DNA of 58,830 bases from IMG/VR virus record IMGVR_UViG_3300021185_000238, positions 1-58,830 of that record, one strand, 5' to 3'. A model generated the notes under the pieces. It was not told where the DNA came from and ran no database searches. It worked only from the letters and a program-made list of their open reading frames with translations. Below are positions 25,539 to 58,830 of the stretch, piece after piece. The translations under genes were made by a program, and so were the position numbers. The stretch comes from a virus (lineage: Duplodnaviria; Caudoviricetes). Positions within the stretch are counted from its first letter, which is position 1. Every line of letters begins with the position of its first letter.

Positions 25539-25793
25539 GTCCCGCCTATGTATTACCTAATAGGAACGTACACCGTACAGTATAAAAAATTTTTTACAAG
25601 GGGTCAGAAAAAGAGGTGGGGGGTGTTCCTATATAGAGGGGGTAGGGGTCTCGAACTCATAAAATAACGATTTATTCGTGGAAATTAGTAATATATAGAG
25701 CGGTGGGACTCCTGTCTGACATAGCGGGTCATGGGGGCGGGGTAGGGGTCGGATTCTGGCCATTCGTGGGTAAACCTACCAGATAACCAGTAA

Positions 25794-25811
25794 TGTATAC
25801 ATATGTATACA
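25794..25811. repeat. 18-bp palindrome TGTATACATATGTATACA, copy 1
   Basis: Perfect palindrome; identical copies at 27088, 27622, 27869 and 29225. Confidence 0.9.
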
Positions 25812-25827
25812 GTCGGCGGCCTATCTA

Positions 25828-25855
25828 TTGTAAACAGGGGTAAACTTGTTATTAT
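25828..25855 (+). promoter_or_regulatory. putative early promoter
   Basis: TTGTAA-16 nt-TATTAT with TGn, upstream of the first plus-strand gene. Confidence 0.4.
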
Positions 25856-25937
25856 GCGAACCATCAAAGCCAATAACGGATTTGATCGGTTAACGCGGCA
25901 CCGCTACAAGCCCGCGCATTTTACAAGGTAATAAGTT

Positions 25938-26528
25938 ATGAAAAACGTAAACGAAGCAACAGCACTGCCAGCCCGATTCACCCCGAAAGCGGCTGATTTA
26001 TTAAGTAAGACTTCCAGCAAGGAGGAAAGTGCCCGTAAGCAAGCGCAGGCGGCCTATGATCAAATGATCAGTGATGGCATGCTTTGGACTGATTTCTTAC
26101 CAGTTAAGGCTAAGGGATCAACGGCCACGCCGGAGTTGAGAGAGGCGCTACTCGCGGCGCGGCGGAAAGGGTTCGGAGCATGGGCACCGAAGCTATACAA
26201 GACGCCCAATACGGCACTTAGCGATGAGGATATAGCCAAGAAAAATAAGTTAAGGACTGACGTAAATAAGAAAATAACGGACGATAGGACGGCTATGAGA
26301 TTACGCCAAGACCCTGAGTTTAAAGCCAGCGAGTCCGAGAAAAATAAAGCTAAACGGGCACCCCAACAGCCCACCGGCCAAGCCAAGGCGGCGGGGTCAG
26401 CGGCCAAGGTACTGGAGTCACTACAACAGGCGGCCAAGCGGGCGCAGGCAATTGAGGAACCGGAGTTTGATGTAGTGGCACTGGTTGCACTGCTAGCTAA
26501 GGCTCAACAGATTGTAGTTAAACACTGA
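25938..26528 (+). CDS. early hypothetical protein (Lys/Ala-rich, helical)
   Basis: 196-aa ORF, first gene of the plus arm, AAGGT RBS. Confidence 0.75.
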   Translation: MKNVNEATALPARFTPKAADLLSKTSSKEESARKQAQAAYDQMISDGMLWTDFLPVKAKGSTATPELREALLAARRKGFGAWAPKLYKTPNTALSDEDIAKKNKLRTDVNKKITDDRTAMRLRQDPEFKASESEKNKAKRAPQQPTGQAKAAGSAAKVLESLQQAAKRAQAIEEPEFDVVALVALLAKAQQIVVKH

Positions 26529-26568
26529 TCACCACCGGCCAAGGATGGCCATCCAACAGGAGTAAGTT

Positions 26569-26688
26569 ATGACGCGTAATGAAATCACTGATGCAATACT
26601 GGCCGCGCTGGTCACGATAGTTTTAATTCCGGCGGCAGGCATTCTGTTAACTATCCTCTGGGTACTGATACAGGGGCAACCATCATGA
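26569..26688 (+). CDS. 39-aa membrane peptide (below ORF-track cutoff)
   Basis: AGGAG RBS; MTRNEITDAILAALVTIVLIPAAGILLTILWVLIQGQPS; ATGA overlap with the next gene. Confidence 0.65.
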   Translation: MTRNEITDAILAALVTIVLIPAAGILLTILWVLIQGQPS

Positions 26689-26879
26689 AAAATCAAAAAT
26701 TGTTAAACCTGCTACAAGCTGATGCGGTTGATTACTATCTCCGCCAAGGGCACTCAATTGAGACCGCCAGATATATGGCCACCTATAACCACGCTGAACA
26801 TATTGACAAATCACTTGAAGACGAATGGTTAGCATTCGAGAATCGCCAGCATGCAATACACGGACTCGATCCTTTTTAA
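26685..26879 (+). CDS. early hypothetical protein
   Basis: 64-aa ORF followed by a terminator. Confidence 0.65.
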   Translation: MKNQKLLNLLQADAVDYYLRQGHSIETARYMATYNHAEHIDKSLEDEWLAFENRQHAIHGLDPF

Positions 26880-26895
26880 CTCCCCTGCAATCCTT

Positions 26896-26920
26896 GCCCC
26901 GCTCCGGCGGGGCTTTTTTT
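26896..26920 (+). terminator. rho-independent terminator
   Basis: GCCCCGC-TCCG-GCGGGGC followed by a T7 tract. Confidence 0.9.
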
Positions 26921-26939
26921 CGCCCCGAGAAAAGTCGTT

Positions 26940-27139
26940 TGATACCAGTTCTACATCTGCGTAGCGCATAGCGTATTCGTCTGATACCAGTTCTACATCT
27001 GCGTAGCGCATAGCGTATTCGTCTGATACCAGTTCAGAATCTGCGTAGCGCATAGCATGGCACGTTAGCGCGTGGACGTTTTTGGTTTGTATACATATGT
27101 ATACATTTCTCTGATACCAGTTCAGAACCTGCGTAGCGC
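26940..27139. repeat. 42-bp tandem repeat (3 units) plus a fourth spaced copy; core TGATACCAGTTC-N5-CTGCGTAGCGC
   Basis: Cores start at 26940, 26982, 27024 and 27112; the 12-mer recurs at 34343. Confidence 0.9.
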
Positions 27140-27141
27140 GT

Positions 27142-27431
27142 TGTTACTTTTACAATGTTACTTTTTTTCTTGTAATGTTACCGCAATGTTACCTTTTTTT
27201 CGGCCAAAAAGTAACAATACAAAAAGTATCTAAACGTGCTGTTTCGTGACAGTGCATGACTAGGCATGTGCGGAAAATGGCCTTTTTTATACTCTTTTTA
27301 ATAAATAATTTATAATGTTACCTTTTACAAAAATAGTATCCGGCGTTCAAAAAATTCTCCCTTTGTTACCTCCCCTTTCACCTTAAAATAATACCCTCAT
27401 ATTTCCACCAAAAAGGTAACAAAGTAACATT
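27142..27431. repeat. cluster of nine TGTTAC/GTAACA motifs around an AT-rich tract (candidate replication origin)
   Basis: AATGTTAC at 27154, 27174, 27185, 27314; TGTTAC at 27142, 27364; inverted GTAACA at 27211, 27416, 27424; AT-rich ~27285-27340. Confidence 0.55.
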
Positions 27432-27529
27432 GTATAAATATCAGTAACTTACAGACCACACGTAGGTACACACTGGTACAACGTAGTACACTACACCGCT
27501 ACACACTAAACAACACGTTTGTGTACCAT

Positions 27530-27557
27530 TTGACATAAGCCGCCATTCCTGTATAAT
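27530..27557 (+). promoter_or_regulatory. consensus sigma70 promoter for the early operon
   Basis: TTGACA-16 nt-TATAAT, both hexamers perfect. Confidence 0.85.
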
Positions 27558-27619
27558 GGTTTTAGTAGGTCGAGTTATGGCCTTCGGGGCGACACAGCTA
27601 AACGTGTCAACACAAACTA

Positions 27620-27665
27620 AATGTATACATATGTATACAAATCAATCGGAGCAATACAGTTATGA
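27620..27665 (+). repeat. 46-bp leader (palindrome + RBS + ATG), identical to 27867-27912
   Basis: aatgtatacatatgtatacaaatcaatcggagcaatacagttatga occurs twice; variants precede 29265 and 32253. Confidence 0.9.
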
Positions 27666-27868
27666 GCGAAGCACTGAGGCACGCGGAGATTCACCACCAG
27701 AACGAGGTGCGTGAGATAGTTGGTAAGCAGACCCGCGAGTTGAAAGAAATGTCCCTTGTACTTAAAAGTGCAGTCGTTGCATTGCACAAGGGCAAAGCAG
27801 ATGTTGTAGACGCGCTATTGGAGCAGGTCATATACGACATAAGCAAGAAGGTCGAAAAACTAAACTAA
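27662..27868 (+). CDS. early hypothetical protein (helical)
   Basis: 68 aa, GGAG RBS, flanked by 46-bp direct repeats. Confidence 0.7.
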   Translation: MSEALRHAEIHHQNEVREIVGKQTRELKEMSLVLKSAVVALHKGKADVVDALLEQVIYDISKKVEKLN

Positions 27869-27908
27869 TGTATACATATGTATACAAATCAATCGGAGCA
27901 ATACAGTT

Positions 27909-28847
27909 ATGAACAATCTAAATCAAATGGTAGCAACAACAGCACCACAGGCAAGCGCACCATCAATCGGATCGAGTGCCATGTTGGGAGAGTTGAAGAT
28001 CAGTTGCTGGACTGGACGCAAGAAAGACAAGTCAGCATCCGCATCAGTGACGAGCCAGAACTACGCCGATAATGGTACGGCATCAGTCAATAAGAAGTTA
28101 CTGGGTAACTGCGACGAGTTAACCGCCATACAGAAATTCGTGGCCAACGCACGCAACATCCACTACAGCATGACAATGCCATGGAGTGATCTGGGTATGC
28201 GACTGTTACCGACAGCGCAGTACTTCAAGTACCACCAACAGATGACCGAGTTGCAAAGCGAGTTCGAGCGCATGGTCGATACGTTCTGTAACAACTACAC
28301 GTGGGAGGTGAGCAGGGCACAGGCACGGATCGGTAGTTTGTTTCGAGCCGATGACTACCCTAGTGAGTGGTCGATACGTGAGAAGTTCGCGTTCAACATC
28401 TCGTATATACCGCTACCCGAGGCCGGTGACTTTCGTGTGGACGTGGGCAACGAGCAACGTGACGTGTTGGAGTCACACTATAACGAGTACTACAGTAAGC
28501 AGTTGGGGTCTGCCATGCAGGATGTGTGGGATCGTACGTACAAGGCTCTGTCTAATATGTCCGAGCGACTAGACTATGGTGGCGATGACAAGAAGAAAGT
28601 ATTCCGCGACTCGCTAGTGGAGAACGTGCTCGACATGGTAGAACTACTTACTGTGTGTAACGTGGCAGGTGACAGCCAGATGTCCGAGATGGCGCGTAAG
28701 CTAGACGACACACTACGCGGGGTCACTCCCGATGGGTTGCGCAACAACGAGGGGTTCCGTGCCGAAACCAAACGGGCAGTGGACGATGTACTGAGGCAAG
28801 TACAGCCCCAAACTGGGCACGGCCTACTACCATCATTGGGGATGTAA
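27909..28847 (+). CDS. conserved early protein (DUF3150-like)
   Basis: ISCWTGRKKD, TMPWSD.G.RLLP, F...DYP and FRDSLVEN; this type of gene commonly precedes AAA/vWA pairs in phages. Confidence 0.6.
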   Translation: MNNLNQMVATTAPQASAPSIGSSAMLGELKISCWTGRKKDKSASASVTSQNYADNGTASVNKKLLGNCDELTAIQKFVANARNIHYSMTMPWSDLGMRLLPTAQYFKYHQQMTELQSEFERMVDTFCNNYTWEVSRAQARIGSLFRADDYPSEWSIREKFAFNISYIPLPEAGDFRVDVGNEQRDVLESHYNEYYSKQLGSAMQDVWDRTYKALSNMSERLDYGGDDKKKVFRDSLVENVLDMVELLTVCNVAGDSQMSEMARKLDDTLRGVTPDGLRNNEGFRAETKRAVDDVLRQVQPQTGHGLLPSLGM

Positions 28848-28849
28848 TC

Positions 28850-29026
28850 ATGGATAAAAAATATTCAATCGCAGTGTGGGACATACAGTTCTACAAAGTA
28901 GACGAGGACGGCAACCCACTCACTGATAACAAGGGCAACGTCCAGCTATTCACCGAGGGAGGCAACATGGACTTATCGTATGTAGCTGAACACGTTACTG
29001 ACGATGAGTTATGGGAGGTAGAATAA
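28850..29026 (+). CDS. 58-aa acidic hypothetical protein (below ORF-track cutoff)
   Basis: MDKKYSIAVWDIQFYKVDEDGNPL...ELWEVE; TAATG overlap with the next gene. Confidence 0.65.
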   Translation: MDKKYSIAVWDIQFYKVDEDGNPLTDNKGNVQLFTEGGNMDLSYVAEHVTDDELWEVE

Positions 29027-29214
29027 TGTATTACGTTGAAGCCTATGACTCAAACGACCGTCAAATACTGGGAAACCTTGACGGTCAAACGGTGCTACGT
29101 GTGCGCAACTACAAGCGCACCAAGCACTACAAGAACCTACGCACGCTACGTACGCCCCGCGTGTCGTATTACAAAATCGTGGCCGTTGATGGCCGCATTG
29201 TTGAAACGCTGTAA
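29026..29214 (+). CDS. basic hypothetical protein
   Basis: MYYVEAYDSNDRQILGNLDGQ...; GGAGG RBS; start at 29026. Confidence 0.65.
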   Translation: MYYVEAYDSNDRQILGNLDGQTVLRVRNYKRTKHYKNLRTLRTPRVSYYKIVAVDGRIVETL

Positions 29215-29264
29215 CTAAACTAAATGTATACATATGTATACAAAACAATTGGAGCAATACCATT

Positions 29265-34993: not shown

Positions 34994-35153
34994 GGGTAGC
35001 CGTCAGCGCCCTACAGCCGCTACGTTCAGGGATAACTGGGATAAGGTGTTTGGGGATAAGGAAGCCCCCAAGCATATCACCGAAGCCGAACACAAGGCAG
35101 ACATGGAAGTAGTGGACATAGAGGAGGATGAAGATGGACTTGATAACGGTTGA
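34986..35153 (+). CDS. 55-aa hypothetical protein (below ORF-track cutoff)
   Basis: MSKGSRQRPTAATFRDNWDKVFG...; overlaps both neighbours. Confidence 0.6.
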   Translation: MSKGSRQRPTAATFRDNWDKVFGDKEAPKHITEAEHKADMEVVDIEEDEDGLDNG

Positions 35154-36969
35154 CTTTGAAACGTATTATGACAAGGACTTCTCTCTCCGTAAGATGACAA
35201 CAGAAGCCTACATACGTGATCCTCGTTTTGAGGTAGTGGGTGTAGGTGTAAAGGTAAATAACAATGCTACAGAATGGGCTAGTGGTACGCACGAAGAACT
35301 TAAAGAATACTTACATACATTCGATTGGGGTTCATCTGTACTACTATGTCATAACACTTTGTTTGATGGCGCTATTCTTAGTTGGTTATTTGACGTTCAT
35401 CCTCGCGTTCTTACTGACACCCTTTGTATTGCTCGTGCTCTTCACGGTGTTGAAGTTGGCGGCTCTCTCCATGCGCTTACGCAGAGATACGGCCTCGGCG
35501 CTAAAGGGACGGAAGTACTAGATGCTATAGGTAAGCGTAGACTGGACTTCACTGATGCGGAGTTAGACAAGTACGGCGACTACTGCATCAATGACGTGGA
35601 GTTAACCTATAAGCTGTTTAATGTTATGGGCAGAGGGTTCCCCAAGGGGGAGTTACGCCTTATAGACTGTACGCTACGCATGTTCGTGGAGCCTGTACTG
35701 GAGTTGGACTTAGGACTACTTGAGCAACACTTGGAAGACACCAAGCAGATAAAGGAAGACTTGATAACGTCTTCTGGTGTTACAAAGAAAGAACTTATGA
35801 GTAATCCTAAGTTTGCCGAATTGCTTGAGGGGCTAGGTGTCATACCCCCTACAAAGATAAGTCTTACCACTAACAAAGAGACGTTCGCGTTCGCTAAGAA
35901 TGACGAGCAGTTCAAGGCATTGGAGAACCACTCTGACCCTAGAGTGCAAGCACTCGTAACTGCTAGGCTAGGCACCAAGAGTACGCTTGAGGAATCACGT
36001 ACTGAGAGGTTTATAGGTATAGCTAAACGCGGACTTCTCCCGGTACCTGTAAGATACTACGCGGCACACACTGGTAGGTGGGGTGGCGATGACAAGATCA
36101 ACATCCAGAATCTACCTAGCCGTGGTGTGAATGGTAAGAAGTTAAAGAACAGTATGCTTGCCCCCGAAGGGTACATGATGGTTGACTGTGACTCGTCGCA
36201 GATCGAAGCGCGTGTACTGGCGTGGCTTGCAGGGCAGGATGATTTAGTCCAAGCGTTTACCGATAAGGAAGACGTGTATATAAAGATGGCGTCTAAGATA
36301 TACAACATACCAGAAGAAGCGGTCACGAAAGACCAACGCTTTGTAGGTAAGACTACTATCTTGGGCGCAGGATATGGCATGGGTGCGGTACGCTTTGCAG
36401 ACCAGCTACAGTCGTTTGGTACCCACATGGACGTAGAGGAAGCACGTAGGGTAATCCGAATCTACCGAGACGCTAACTGGAAGATAAACACGTTATGGCG
36501 TGACTGTCAGAACATGCTGGTTGAGATGTCGCGTGGTAACTCGGGTAGCCTCGGCCCCAATGGGATAGTTAAGTACGGGGCTGACGGGCGTAATGGTTGG
36601 ATACTACTACCGTCTGGACTCAAGATGCGGTATGACGACTTACAGTACGAGCAGGGTGAGCGTGGGCCGGAGTTTAAGTATAAGACTCGGCGCGGGTACA
36701 CTAGGATATATGGCGGTAAGGTCACAGAGAATATATGCCAAGCGATAGCTAGATGTATCATTGGCGATCAGATGTTAGCGATTGCTAAAAGGTATAAGGT
36801 CGCTTTGACTGTACATGATTCCGTGGTATGTTGTGTACCAGAGGATGAACTTAAAGAAGCTACACGTTACATTGAAGAGTGTATGAGTAGCACCGCACCT
36901 TGGGCGGAAGGCTTGCCTATCACGTGCGAATCAGATAATGGTAAATCATACGGAGAAGCGGCAGGATGA
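35134..36969 (+). CDS. polA: DNA polymerase family A (3'-5' exonuclease + polymerase)
   Basis: Exo I DFET, exo II HNTLFD, exo III YCINDV; HTGRW; motif A DSSQIEAR, motif B RFVGKTTILGAGYG, motif C TVHDS. Start 35134 fits GAGGAGG spacing. Confidence 0.95.
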   Translation: MDLITVDFETYYDKDFSLRKMTTEAYIRDPRFEVVGVGVKVNNNATEWASGTHEELKEYLHTFDWGSSVLLCHNTLFDGAILSWLFDVHPRVLTDTLCIARALHGVEVGGSLHALTQRYGLGAKGTEVLDAIGKRRLDFTDAELDKYGDYCINDVELTYKLFNVMGRGFPKGELRLIDCTLRMFVEPVLELDLGLLEQHLEDTKQIKEDLITSSGVTKKELMSNPKFAELLEGLGVIPPTKISLTTNKETFAFAKNDEQFKALENHSDPRVQALVTARLGTKSTLEESRTERFIGIAKRGLLPVPVRYYAAHTGRWGGDDKINIQNLPSRGVNGKKLKNSMLAPEGYMMVDCDSSQIEARVLAWLAGQDDLVQAFTDKEDVYIKMASKIYNIPEEAVTKDQRFVGKTTILGAGYGMGAVRFADQLQSFGTHMDVEEARRVIRIYRDANWKINTLWRDCQNMLVEMSRGNSGSLGPNGIVKYGADGRNGWILLPSGLKMRYDDLQYEQGERGPEFKYKTRRGYTRIYGGKVTENICQAIARCIIGDQMLAIAKRYKVALTVHDSVVCCVPEDELKEATRYIEECMSSTAPWAEGLPITCESDNGKSYGEAAG

Positions 36970-37157: not shown

Positions 37158-37410
37158 CGTAACAGATATTAACGAGTTTAAGCGTGCCAAAGAAGTAACC
37201 TCTAATTTCCCCGAAACTGACGGAGATTACCTGACTATAATAGTAGGAGAAACAAAAGAGGGGGAAGAGATAATACTTATAGAGCAGTGCGAGATGGAAG
37301 GTACTGTGGAGCACAAGAATACTATATGTATGGATAAGGATATGTTGCACACGTTGATAGCTGAGTTAGTAGTGGCCGCAGGTATTATAGAGGGTAAAGA
37401 ATCGGAATGA
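37150..37410 (+). CDS. acidic hypothetical protein
   Basis: 86 aa, TTG start after AGGAG; NVTDINEFKR N-terminus. Confidence 0.6.
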   Translation: MGNVTDINEFKRAKEVTSNFPETDGDYLTIIVGETKEGEEIILIEQCEMEGTVEHKNTICMDKDMLHTLIAELVVAAGIIEGKESE

Positions 37411-38078
37411 GTATAACCCCGTGGTCGTTCTCAAAGATTAAGTCGTTCGAGCAGTGCCCTAAGAAGTTCTACCACCTCAAGGTGGCAAAGGACTACAGGG
37501 AGCCAGAGACAGAGGCCATGCTATATGGCACTGCCGTACACCTTGCCGCAGAGGAATACATTAGGGATGGCACTCCGCTACCCGAAAAGTACAACTACTG
37601 TAAAGACGTACTTGATGTACTGAATGGCATAGAAGGTGAGAAGCTGTGCGAGTTGGAGATGGGGCTTACTGAGAACCTAGAGCCGTGCGGGTTCCGAGAT
37701 GACAACGTGTGGTGGCGTGGTATTGCCGATTTAGTTATCCTAAACAAACGCACCAAAACAGCTTATGTGGTAGACTACAAGACAAGTAAAAATACTAGGT
37801 ACGCTGATAAAGGCCAGTTAGAACTGATGGCTATGAGCATGTTCAAGATGTACCCCAAGCTAGAGAAAGTGAAGGGCGGCCTATTATTTGTAGTGTGTGG
37901 TGAGTTAATAAAGGAAGACTACTCCAAGCCGGATGAGCCTAGGCTATGGGAGAAGTGGTTATCAGACTACAGCCGCATGGAACAAGCATTTGAAAATGAT
38001 GTGTGGAATGCCCACCAAAGTGGATTATGTCGTAGGCACTGTATTGTTACCGAGTGCGTACACAATGGGAGAAACTAA
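37407..38078 (+). CDS. PD-(D/E)XK (RecB/Cas4-like) exonuclease
   Basis: WSFS...CP, GTAVH, RGIADL, VVDYKT, QL..M and C-terminal LCRRHC...C. Confidence 0.85.
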   Translation: MSITPWSFSKIKSFEQCPKKFYHLKVAKDYREPETEAMLYGTAVHLAAEEYIRDGTPLPEKYNYCKDVLDVLNGIEGEKLCELEMGLTENLEPCGFRDDNVWWRGIADLVILNKRTKTAYVVDYKTSKNTRYADKGQLELMAMSMFKMYPKLEKVKGGLLFVVCGELIKEDYSKPDEPRLWEKWLSDYSRMEQAFENDVWNAHQSGLCRRHCIVTECVHNGRN

Positions 38079-38350
38079 TGCGTAAGAAAAGAAAGAAGCA
38101 GGTCAATGCCCCTGTCGGCAGTAAAGCGTTCGAGGCTAGGATGGAGCGACAGCGTGCCAGACGCAAGATGGACAGAGAAGGTAAAGACGCCAACGGTAAC
38201 GGCAAGGCTGACAAGCGTGAAGGTAAAGACGTTAGTCACAAGAAGGCACTGAGCAAAGGTGGCACTAATAAGGACGGTGTTACAGTAGAGGATCGCTCAA
38301 AGAACCGTAGCCGCAACTATAAAAAGAAAGGCAGTAGAAAGCCTAAGTAA
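38078..38350 (+). CDS. small basic HNH-like protein
   Basis: KDVSHKKALSKGGTN...V....NRSRN, a beta-beta-alpha-Me-like pattern; TAATG overlap at 38078. Confidence 0.6.
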   Translation: MRKKRKKQVNAPVGSKAFEARMERQRARRKMDREGKDANGNGKADKREGKDVSHKKALSKGGTNKDGVTVEDRSKNRSRNYKKKGSRKPK

Positions 38351-38372
38351 AGAACTCCCTATTGGTATGGGT

Positions 38373-38587
38373 TGACGCGTGCTTGATGCGTCGTTAAATG
38401 ATGTTGTGTCCTTTCCTTGGGACACCTATTGCGCCTCCGTGGTAGGTACGCGACATAAAATCGAGTAGTCCGAAGGGGGCGCGTTTGGGATGTTTGCCGC
38501 GCTCCGATCATAAGTAGACCTAGCCCTATCTATGGACGAAGCAGGGCCATTAAACTTTTTCGCGTGACGTGGACACCCACTTCATGC
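38373..38587 (+). ncRNA. candidate multi-stem structured RNA
   Basis: 258-nt intergenic gap with at least six complementary stems, many G-U pairs and a possible pseudoknot (see findings). Confidence 0.45.
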
Positions 38588-38608
38588 TATTTCGTATCGG
38601 AGCGATAA

Positions 38609-40144
38609 ATGAAGATAGTAGATGATAAGGCGTTATTACTTACGCTACGTAACCCCGCAAAGGTTACATCGGTTATACCAAAGAGCAGGGAGTTAGCAAA
38701 CAACCAAGTACTTGTTAACTGGGGATTAGAAGAGACACAGGTACTGCGCAACATGAATATCAATGCGCCATCCCCAATAGAATCTAAGTACGATTGGACA
38801 GGTAAGTACACTCCGTTCGATCACCAGAAGACTACAGCTAGTTTTTTCACGTTGAACCGCAAGGCTTTCTGCTTTAACGAGCAGGGTACAGGTAAGACCG
38901 CCAGTGCTATATGGGCATCAGACTACCTGATGAAGCAGGGGGTGATACGTCGAGTGTTGGTGGTCTGCCCCCTATCTATTATGGATTCTGCGTGGCGTAA
39001 CGACCTATTCAGTTTTGCTATGCACCGCAAGGTAGACGTGGCGTATGGGGCAAAAGCTAAACGCGCCAAGATAATCGAGGGCGATGCTGAGTACGTGATA
39101 ATAAATTATGACGGAGTGGAGATCGTAGCAGACGCCGTGGCTAACGGAGGGTTTGACCTCATAATCGTTGACGAGGCTACGCACTACAAGAACCCACAAA
39201 CAAAACGATGGAAGACCATGAACAAGTTAGTGGGGCCAAGTACGTGGTTGTGGATGATGACAGGTACTCCCGCCGCGCAAAGCCCTACCGATGCGTACGG
39301 TATAGCCAAACTCGTTAACCCCAATGGCGTGCCTAGGTTCTTTGGGTCGTTCCGCGACCAAGTAATGCGTAAGGTAACAAACTTTAAGTGGGTGCCGAAG
39401 GAAGATGCTACCAACACAGTGCATAGGGTACTGCAACCTGCCATACGGTTCACCAAGGAAGAGTGCCTAGACTTACCTGACATGGTGTACACCAAGAGAG
39501 AAGTGCCTTTGACTAGGCAACAGACTAAGTACTATAAAGAATTAAAGAATAAGATGGTAATGCAGGCGGCAGGAGAACAGATAAGCGCCGCCAATGCCGC
39601 AGTTAACATGAACAAGTTATTACAAATATCCGCAGGTGCGGTATACACCGACGATGGGGACTCTCTTGAGTTTGATATATCCCCACGCTACAAGGTACTC
39701 CGAGAAGTAATAGATGAGTCTAGTAAGAAGGTGTTGGTGTTCGTACCGTTCAAGCATACGATTGACCTACTGACTAATAAGTTACGTGATGATGGTATAT
39801 CTACGGAAATAATACGGGGAGACGTGAGTGCCGGTAAGCGTACGGAGATATTCAAACGGTTCCAAGAAGCTGATGATCCCCGAGTGTTGGTCATACAACC
39901 TCAGTCAGCGGCGCACGGTGTAACACTAACTGCGGCAAACACGGTGGTATGGTGGGCACCGACAAGTTCCTTGGAAACCTACGCACAGGCTAACGCTCGT
40001 GTACACAGATCAGGACAAGATCACAAATGTACCGTTGTGCAGCTACAAGGTTCGCACGCAGAGAAACGTGTTTACGCACTGCTTGACAATAGAATAGACA
40101 TTCACACAAAAATGATAGACCTTTACAAAGAAATACTTGACTAG
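38609..40144 (+). CDS. SNF2-family (SF2) helicase
   Basis: EQGTGKT, DEAT (DExx), MTGTP, HGVTLT and QANARVHRSGQ. Confidence 0.92.
   Translation: MKIVDDKALLLTLRNPAKVTSVIPKSRELANNQVLVNWGLEETQVLRNMNINAPSPIESKYDWTGKYTPFDHQKTTASFFTLNRKAFCFNEQGTGKTASAIWASDYLMKQGVIRRVLVVCPLSIMDSAWRNDLFSFAMHRKVDVAYGAKAKRAKIIEGDAEYVIINYDGVEIVADAVANGGFDLIIVDEATHYKNPQTKRWKTMNKLVGPSTWLWMMTGTPAAQSPTDAYGIAKLVNPNGVPRFFGSFRDQVMRKVTNFKWVPKEDATNTVHRVLQPAIRFTKEECLDLPDMVYTKREVPLTRQQTKYYKELKNKMVMQAAGEQISAANAAVNMNKLLQISAGAVYTDDGDSLEFDISPRYKVLREVIDESSKKVLVFVPFKHTIDLLTNKLRDDGISTEIIRGDVSAGKRTEIFKRFQEADDPRVLVIQPQSAAHGVTLTAANTVVWWAPTSSLETYAQANARVHRSGQDHKCTVVQLQGSHAEKRVYALLDNRIDIHTKMIDLYKEILD

Positions 40145-56557: not shown

Positions 56558-58830
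<2,273 letters not shown>

Follow-up and report, generated by a model that had tools for sequence, protein, structure and literature searches.

A conserved double-pseudoknot RNA upstream of the helicase gene in uncultured marine phages, and its possible role as an intercistronic leader

The complete 58,830-bp genome of an uncultured phage of the Caudoviricetes (IMG/VR record IMGVR_UViG_3300021185_000238), which carries direct terminal repeats and is referred to here, over its whole length, as the window, contains an intergenic gap ahead of a gene for an SNF2-type helicase. Positions 38374-38547 of the plus strand of this gap almost certainly encode a real, conserved, structured RNA fold, which patterns of sequence variation indicate to be two adjoining H-type pseudoknots. 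The RNA family that it represents is restricted to a clade of siphovirus-like phages, uncultured and of marine and aquatic origin, and has a fixed place in them, the intercistronic space upstream of the helicase gene. Our preferred reading, to which we assign a probability of about one half, is that it is transcribed within the replication-module mRNA, adopts the double-pseudoknot fold and serves as a cis-acting intercistronic leader for the gene that follows.

A first-pass annotation, made from the letters of the window, had proposed a densely structured non-coding RNA (ncRNA) in this gap and had suggested collecting related intergenic regions in search of covariation; the sequences and coordinates of the helices it listed were as given. 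At least 597 relatives of the helicase were found in IMG/VR, 80 of which were kept, so that the locus set comprised the window and these 80 (81 sources; loci are cited below by our own L numbers). Six close relatives align across the entire gap at 78-98% identity, and in these, invariant blocks alternate with hypervariable, length-variable stretches that coincide exactly with the proposed peripheral hairpins. Distant helicase loci retain only the block around 38508-38554, a degenerate pattern of which was found in at least 117 IMG/VR stretches, with 63 distinct versions among the matches listed.

The evidence for the fold comes from a covariance-model alignment (A6) of 101 matches, representing 67 distinct sequences. 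This was produced with a third covariance model, in which rows were correctly registered (MAFFT and the first two models shifted the PK1 strand of window-type sequences by one column), and from which helices P1 and PK3 had been left out. Across the 67 distinct sequences, the five conserved helices (P1, PK1, P3, P5 and PK3; Table 1) comprise 25 pairs and 1610 cells, 99.3% of which are standard pairs, and compensatory changes altering both sides are seen in 16 of the 25 pairs. Pairing as complete as this, as many pairs or cells with changes on both sides, and a covariation score as high were reached by none of 500 shuffles, and as many further pair types by a single one (1/500). When the 3′ partners were slid by 1-3 columns as a control, pairing fell to 31-46%, with 2-4 compensated pairs.

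In the 5′ domain, the P1 hairpin proposed in the first pass is present, with compensated pair types GC/CG/AU, AU/GC and CG/UA, but has five base pairs instead of seven, the AT at 38386-87 belonging to PK1. The latter pseudoknot, overlooked in the first pass, is the strongest helix, with 7 bp. Read sequence by sequence, independently of any alignment, PK1 is complementary at 7/7 positions in 55 of the 65 parsed distinct sequences, in more than 12 sequence combinations, including CCTAGAT/ATCTAGG, ACTCAAT/ATTGAGT, GTCCGAT/ATCGGAT, GTTAGAT/ATCTAAC and GTGTGAT/ATCGCAT. The helices proposed within the P2 domain exist in the window, and its basal pairs covary among close relatives (T-A, T-G, G-C), but the domain is hypervariable and its sequence is not conserved; its length ranges from 7 to 98 nt and it is missing in the L090/L108/L126/L147/L175 type. 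A pairing GTGTCC/GGACAC, thought to compete with it, simply adjoins the next hairpin, and there is no competition.

The helices proposed for the 3′ domain, including the pseudoknot formed by the P5 loop, were all borne out by the alignment (Table 1). The exception is the stem of P4, which exists in the window but whose sequence is not conserved among relatives, P4 itself being nearly absent in L128 and L096. P2, set in an A-rich connecting strand of the 5′ domain, and P4, which shares with P5 the junction closed by P3, are variable, dispensable hairpins. A third small pseudoknot, TAG (38466-68) with CTA (38520-22), was rejected, as its first pair is T-A in 25, C-A in 5 and A-A in 8 of 38 sequences. 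Two further features of the 5′ boundary were noted. A G/T-rich tract, ranging from GGTATGGGTT to (TG)n, precedes P1 where the upstream stop codon is distant (38351-38373 in the window; also L004, L013, L018, L110, L128, L144 and L165), and in the L019/L082 type the upstream stop codon TGA lies within the P1 loop.

Table 1. Features of the RNA element and of its surroundings in the window.
Feature	Position	Strand	Remarks
P1 hairpin: GACGC/GCGTC, 9-nt loop with PK1 5′ strand	38374-78 / 38388-92	+	98.7% of cells paired; 3/5 pairs compensated
PK1: GCTTGAT (last seven nt of P1 loop) / ATCGAGT	38381-87 / 38460-66	+	98.4% paired; 5/7 compensated
Junction GTTAAA (consensus NWTAAA), variable P2 domain, A-run	38393-38459	+	
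P2 domain: stem enclosing two hairpins, one with loop CCTC	38401-38456	+	Form seen in the window
3′ core domain	38467-38547	+	Begins with a conserved A
P3: GTCC/GGAC	38468-71 / 38534-37	+	100% paired; 3 pairs compensated
P4, variable	38472-38509	+	12-124 nt across relatives
P4 stem: GGGGCGCG/CGCGCTCC	38476-83 / 38498-505	+	In the window; segment hypervariable
Junction ATAAG between P4 and P5		+	
P5: TAGA/TCTA, loop CCTA-GCCCT-A	38515-18 / 38529-32	+	100% paired; 2 pairs compensated
PK3: GCCCT/AGGGC (P5 loop with 3′ tail)	38523-27 / 38543-47	+	99.7% paired; 3 pairs compensated
Conserved GAAGC between P3 and PK3	38538-42	+	GAAG unpaired
A/U-rich linker CATTAAACTTTTTC	38548-38561	+	Similar linker in loci with both modules
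Module B: interrupted hairpin and TATTT	38562-66/38583-87 and 38569-72/38577-80; to 38592	+	Terminator-like
Shine-Dalgarno GGAG	38599-38602	+	
Intergenic gap holding the RNA element	38351-38608		258 nt
Family A DNA polymerase gene	35128-36969	+	
PD-(D/E)XK exonuclease gene	37407-38078	+	
90-amino-acid (aa) very basic protein gene	38078-38350	+	phrog_4590; without Pfam domain
SNF2-type helicase gene	38609-40144 (ATG 38609-38611)	+	PF00176, 1.6e-24; phrog_62, 3.6e-113

The 3′ domain also occurs by itself. A descriptor of this core (A-P3-variable-P5-loop with PK3 strand-P5′-N-P3′-GAAG-PK3′) matched 26 of 77 helicase-upstream regions, as compared with 7 matches in the 649,444 nt of these loci that served as background, and recovered loci with the 3′ domain only that the covariance model had missed (L022, L023, L024, L035, L042, L058 and L065). 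In these 3′-only variants all three helices are rewritten and fully compensated, with P3 as GTAC/GTAC, GACC/GGTC, GGGC/GCCC or GGCT/AGCC, P5 as CACG/CGTG or CACT/AGTG, and PK3 as GCCGT/ACGGC, TCCCGT/GCGGGG or GCTCAGT/ACTGAGC, while the A before P3 and the unpaired GAAG are unchanged. In L022, L042 and L065 the first nucleotide of P3 is shared with the TAG stop codon of the upstream gene, and in L164 the 5′ domain is likewise lost and replaced by coding sequence. The 3′ domain, which stands alone in some relatives, is the essential core, and the 5′ domain is accessory to it.

The pairing data also identify the strand. The folded strand is the plus strand, as the first-pass annotation had argued from G-U pairs, since the five helices hold 90 G-U cells, as opposed to 12 non-standard cells, and these would read as A-C mismatches on the other strand. 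This bears on the scarcely credible alternative that the conserved unit is a DNA-level element, such as a replication origin, promoter or recombination site, or else a hidden small open reading frame (ORF). Its site within the replication module, a pair of promoter-like hexamers (TTGACG-16-TTAAAT) overlying P1 in the window and folding z-scores that are similar on both strands could be read in this way. However, in addition to the G-U cells, the compensatory changes keep the pairing and not the sequence. We rejected the promoter as P1 covaries and the hexamers are not conserved, being lost in the L090 and L096 types, and a promoter scan found none here. Hidden coding can be excluded because element lengths (100-179 nt) are without a multiple-of-three bias (modulo 3 counts of 21/17/27) and no frame is conserved, the longest stop-free stretch being 24-53 aa. 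Folding energy, suggested in the first pass as a check, is unconvincing by itself: the plus strand lies modestly below its shuffles (z = -2.22; 8/200 shuffles fold as well), but the minus strand does so too (z = -3.05; 0/200), so that the strands are not separated. The thermodynamic minimum-free-energy fold was not used as support because it misses pseudoknots.

The element matches no catalogued RNA family. Searches with Rfam 15 (4227 models) gave no matches over the whole window; when E values up to 10 were admitted for 38200-38750, a single C/D snoRNA match appeared, whose 22.4 bits fall short of the gathering score of that family (70), and in 14 divergent relatives there were four weak matches, none of them at the element. 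The core 14-mers were not found in the literature searched, and the motif is not described in the topical literature searched or in those parts of the preprint 10.64898/2026.10.21.760802 that the search covered, supplements outside it being places where unnamed motifs may be listed. Together with the strong covariation, these results support the view, put forward in the first pass, that this is a new ncRNA class.

Its distribution is narrow. Covariance-model searches of the 81 sources gave 28 matches in 27 of them, one being the window, all on the plus strand and immediately 5′ of the helicase gene, with one locus carrying two tandem copies; the complete genome has a single copy. A second set of 79 IMG/VR helicase loci, collected with the L080 helicase as query, yielded 20 strong matches in 19 loci. 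The source contigs are exclusively from uncultured marine, estuarine and aquatic phages. The core pattern was not found among 185,579 prokaryotic species, each represented by one genome, and three cultured relatives lack the element, their helicase genes abutting the upstream genes. Among the 63 distinct pattern matches from those listed, the next ORF is the helicase in 48, an ORF of 137-152 aa in 10 and one of 56 aa in 1, with the contig ending first in the other 4. Tandem copies of a minimal, P2-less element lie about 10 nt apart before the helicase in L066:984-1192, L126:9145-9353 and L255:935-1143. Considering only loci with at least 500 nt upstream, the full element was found in 24 of 73. 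When its presence was mapped onto a quick helicase tree with 73 rows, there were 4 label changes, compared with a shuffled mean of 20.3 (0/500 shuffles as low; row L006, scored as having none, is probably a contig-end artefact), and 3′-only forms fall in sister clades. The full element is thus inherited within clades of this tree. Relatives without it have overlapping stop and start codons at the same place, or else a plain hairpin just before GGAGAAC.

The element always has the small basic gene on its 5′ side and, on its 3′ side, either the helicase gene or a small nuclease-like ORF inserted ahead of it. This inserted 137-152-aa ORF was seen at L011:2591-3004 and in L087, L095, L138, L141, L153, L164, L097 and L128. 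By eye, it carries a D...E-V-K motif of the PD-(D/E)XK-like kind, and its ribosome binding site (RBS) lies directly 3′ of the element or of the hairpin described next.

In the window type, the element is followed by a second, terminator-like structure, module B, which lies 7 nt upstream of the helicase GGAG. This is the hairpin that the first pass had placed before the helicase RBS, and it is conserved in 10/10 of the loci given, with compensation at 2/9 pairs. It is also present in loci without the 5′ domain. In relatives it is followed by CTTTTTG or CTTTTTTG; a U-run of 5-6 is found in L022/L023/L027/L042, and only TATTT in the window. No antiterminator for this hairpin was found by eye, in what was not an exhaustive search. 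Some loci contain an extra insert between the element and module B, with a TATAAT-like box and a hairpin (L114:5857-6104, L004:2804-2955, L097, L110, L128 and L172); that of L114 includes a long (CAGTTATT)n microsatellite.

How might such an element work? We infer action in cis because its strand and position are constant, because only a few nucleotides separate its 3′ end from the RBS or a terminator-like hairpin, because simpler hairpins occupy the same site in relatives, and because the inserted ORF takes over the position behind it. The element would therefore act on whichever gene follows, normally that for the SNF2 helicase. Its compact 3′ pseudoknot would end a few nucleotides before the Shine-Dalgarno (SD) sequence or, in the window type, before the terminator-like hairpin abutting it. 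The number of transcripts or ribosomes arriving at the helicase start would then depend on whether the fold forms or is held by a bound factor, be it a small ligand or a protein. A ligand, a protein or a ribosome terminating on the upstream gene might be the effector, or there may be none. A leader controlling the helicase was among the first-pass suggestions, and position and orientation fit: the element always has the orientation of the genes, and among 59 distinct variants the start codon that follows is at most 30 nt from the 3′ end, with no module B between, in 26, 31-80 nt away, with module B between, in 28, and farther off in the other 5. No regulatory switch was found, be it an expression platform with mutually exclusive pairings or a general complementarity to the SD sequence.

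Several observations weigh against this leader function. The 16 nt that precede the start codon show no more complementarity to the element than shuffled sequences do (mean longest run 6.83, versus 6.66 when shuffled), and the SD sequence never falls inside a conserved helix. A terminator scan of the window did not flag module B, and the U-tracts after PK3 or module B are inconsistent, that of the window being weak (TATTTCG). Two thirds of the nearest helicase relatives are without the element, so it is not essential for helicase expression, and a simple leader would not usually come in two tandem copies, as in L066/L126/L255. The element is covered by contigs of RNA libraries belonging to four studies (X1, X3, X4 and X5), one of which (X3 record 8, 38315-38686) runs unbroken across it into the helicase gene; because these are assembled contigs, they prove neither transcription nor its ends, strand or level, and the parts they leave uncovered are uninformative. 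A spike in X3 depth at 38505-38551 probably arises from many strains sharing the conserved core.

Two specific devices were considered and rejected. In the window, a 9-nt match, CGCTCCGAT, on the 3′ strand of P4 (38500-38508) could pair with the SD region at 38594-38602, but it is not kept in close relatives with another P4. Recoding at the upstream stop codon by readthrough, frameshifting or bypassing has the wrong spacing and downstream frames that are short or unconserved. We also noted that 9-10-nt matches to the SD region arise from P2 or P4 in other lineages (L123, L003 and L138), and that CCUCC-like P2 loops are frequent, if not universal.

Some of the same observations could point to a stand-alone phage ncRNA, or one cut from the operon transcript, that acts in trans (on some host system, for instance, as a decoy or a guide) and whose location ahead of the helicase gene is incidental. 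Five conserved helices with two pseudoknots are more complex than most leaders need; in addition, the tandem duplication, the lack of any SD sequestration and the optional nature of the element (24/73 loci), which recalls accessory or counter-defence cargo, would all suit such a role. We nevertheless regard it as unlikely, as the element occurs at no other site of the genome and never on the opposite strand, its 3′ end lies a few nucleotides from the next RBS in 26/59 variants, and it has no promoter of its own: because P1 covaries, the RNA starts upstream of the hexamers over P1, which are the sole promoter-like sequence.

A new self-cleaving ribozyme, cutting the polycistronic mRNA after the small basic gene and ahead of the helicase gene and so uncoupling their stability or translation, seems to us very doubtful. 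The known classes of small ribozyme have pseudoknots and turn up frequently in phage DNA, and the compact pseudoknotted core, the near-invariant unpaired nucleotides of full-length variants (the AAA run, CCTA and GAAGC) and the intercistronic site in a phage operon would all be in keeping with this. However, no Rfam ribozyme family matches even at E values up to 10. Furthermore, since 3′-only variants lose CCTA and have a fully changed P5, few unpaired nucleotides are universally conserved (the A before P3 and GAAG). The unbroken X3 contig is also evidence against cleavage, if weak, as it may derive from DNA or from uncleaved RNA.

The gene directly upstream invites a further explanation. It encodes the 90-aa very basic protein, which the first-pass annotation had called HNH-like and had proposed as a partner of the RNA. 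This protein is present in 71 of the 73 loci with at least 500 nt upstream, 47 of which are without the full RNA, and is therefore independent of it; co-occurrence thus lends the partnership no support (71/73 loci for the protein, 24/73 for the full RNA). The protein collection contains 5090 relatives, all unnamed, and these are very abundant in marine data. The family has an invariant RMERQ.ARR segment in a predicted helix and a GKD..H.K.L..GG.N.DG...NR motif, with H54, N64 and N76 invariant. An AlphaFold 2 model (pLDDT 77.5) consists of one long helix and a cysteine-less beta-beta-alpha unit (E51-54, E68-71, H73-79). Pfam and PDB sequence searches gave no match, and fold matches are weak (Foldseek E ~7; VIA Z at most 4.4), but HNH nucleases are enriched and dominant among them, including the Gme HNH nicking enzyme, EcoKMcrA, the HNH domains of Cas9 and IscB, GVE2 HNH and colicin E7. 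An HNH-like nature is thus plausible, if weakly supported. A HEARO or omega-RNA system is not indicated, as no Rfam family of that kind matches and the neighbouring protein, with 90 aa and no Pfam domain, is not an IscB/IsrB-type RuvC/HNH protein.

The protein could instead act as in N/nut antitermination, its arginine-rich helix binding the nascent PK3 region so that polymerase reads through the module B hairpin into the helicase genes. The gene order (basic protein, RNA, terminator-like hairpin, downstream genes) and the invariant RMERQ.ARR of the predicted helix are what this would predict, and the PK3 stem GCCCU/AGGGC with its adjacent GAAG presumably resembles lambda boxB, as, we assume, the protein does N. 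Such a mechanism is highly improbable, however. The protein occurs in the 47 loci without the full RNA, so that strict co-occurrence fails, and whereas N is disordered, the C-terminal half of this protein has the look of a small beta-beta-alpha unit of the HNH type. Hairpin B is missing in 26/59 variants, and the free covariation of the PK3 stem (GCCGT/ACGGC, GCTCAGT/ACTGAGC) means that there is no specific recognition of its sequence. A boxA-like string, TGCGTCTTTAAACAA, was discarded as a candidate, since part of it lies on the P1 strand that covaries and the L090 type does not have it.

In the genome as a whole, the element lies in a plus-strand early and replication module at 25.9-45.2 kb, with a gene for a gp2.5-like SSB further downstream of the helicase. 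The gap was described in the first pass as by far the largest in its surroundings; this holds within the replication operon (258 nt, compared with 134 and 91 nt for the next), but larger non-coding stretches exist in the early region. A blastn search against deposited phages gave no DNA match. The helicase has its best protein match, at 42% identity, in Pseudomonas phage Rollin; the next best are in phages of Acinetobacter and Rhizobium and in Xp15. Elsewhere in the window, a palindrome, TGTATACATATGTATACA, occurs five times in early-gene leaders (25791-29242), and a 57-nt leader is repeated at 27609, 27856 and 29212. A 42-nt repeat is present four times (three in tandem, one 88 nt further) in an early non-coding region, 26935-27148, and could form iterons or an operator array. 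On the minus strand, long in-frame coding repeats of 9, 15 and 18 nt occupy 1-260 and 56980-58830, the array at the end recurring at the start, consistent with a terminal repeat.

Two pseudoknots together with covariation on this scale usually mark an RNA as a riboswitch, a ribozyme or a dedicated site for protein binding, and new classes of these are rare and tend to expose unknown regulation. It is possible, if rather unlikely, that the element is a new class of ligand-sensing riboswitch or self-cleaving ribozyme that times or doses helicase expression in an abundant marine phage lineage. Its hosts are very abundant, wholly uncultured marine phages of about 58 kb, and its place directly 5′ of a replication helicase may make it a control point of the phage replication programme. 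In addition, the plain hairpin, the 3′ core alone, the full double pseudoknot and the tandem copies form a natural dissection series that could reveal the way in which complex RNA folds arise, and the covariance model from this analysis can be used to annotate the element in viromes.

Among known systems, the 3′ domain recalls, in its topology, flavivirus exoribonuclease-resistant RNAs (xrRNAs) and pseudoknotted tRNA-like structures, which likewise have a three-way junction closed by one helix and pairing between a hairpin loop and the 3′ tail, but no homology was detected and P4 can be nearly absent, as in L128 and L096. Phage intercistronic hairpins, such as T7 RNase III sites, and intrinsic terminators share the niche of the element, and a plain hairpin stands there in element-less relatives; module B, too, is a hairpin with a U-rich run behind it. 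In place of a long irregular duplex, however, the element forms a double pseudoknot that has long-range pairings and is conserved at unpaired positions as well. The processive antitermination RNAs HK022 put and Bacillus EAR, like lambda nut/boxB, are, in the same way, structured RNAs inside long operons, and the terminator-like hairpin after the element in about half of the variants, together with the boxB-like PK3 and GAAG of the window and the adjacent gene for a small arginine-rich protein, adds to the likeness. They differ in that the EAR family of Rfam is unmatched, the PK3 stem is free to covary, the basic protein is found without the RNA in 47 loci, and no terminator follows in 26/59 variants. 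SAM-II/SAM-V and preQ1-II riboswitches are H-type pseudoknots beside an RBS, with a hairpin embedded in a loop in the case of preQ1-II. Here, no Rfam riboswitch matches, the SD sequence is outside every conserved helix, and the downstream gene, for a helicase, does not point to a ligand as a metabolic gene would. Nevertheless, the element shares with pseudoknotted translational riboswitch aptamers its H-type pseudoknots, A-rich crossing strands, optional embedded hairpin (P2), location directly 5′ of the SD sequence and occasional tandem copies, and it has the conserved, covarying, aptamer-like fold in a 5′ leader by which riboswitches are recognised. By analogy, its mode of working would be most like that of these aptamers or of the antitermination RNAs that operate within operons.

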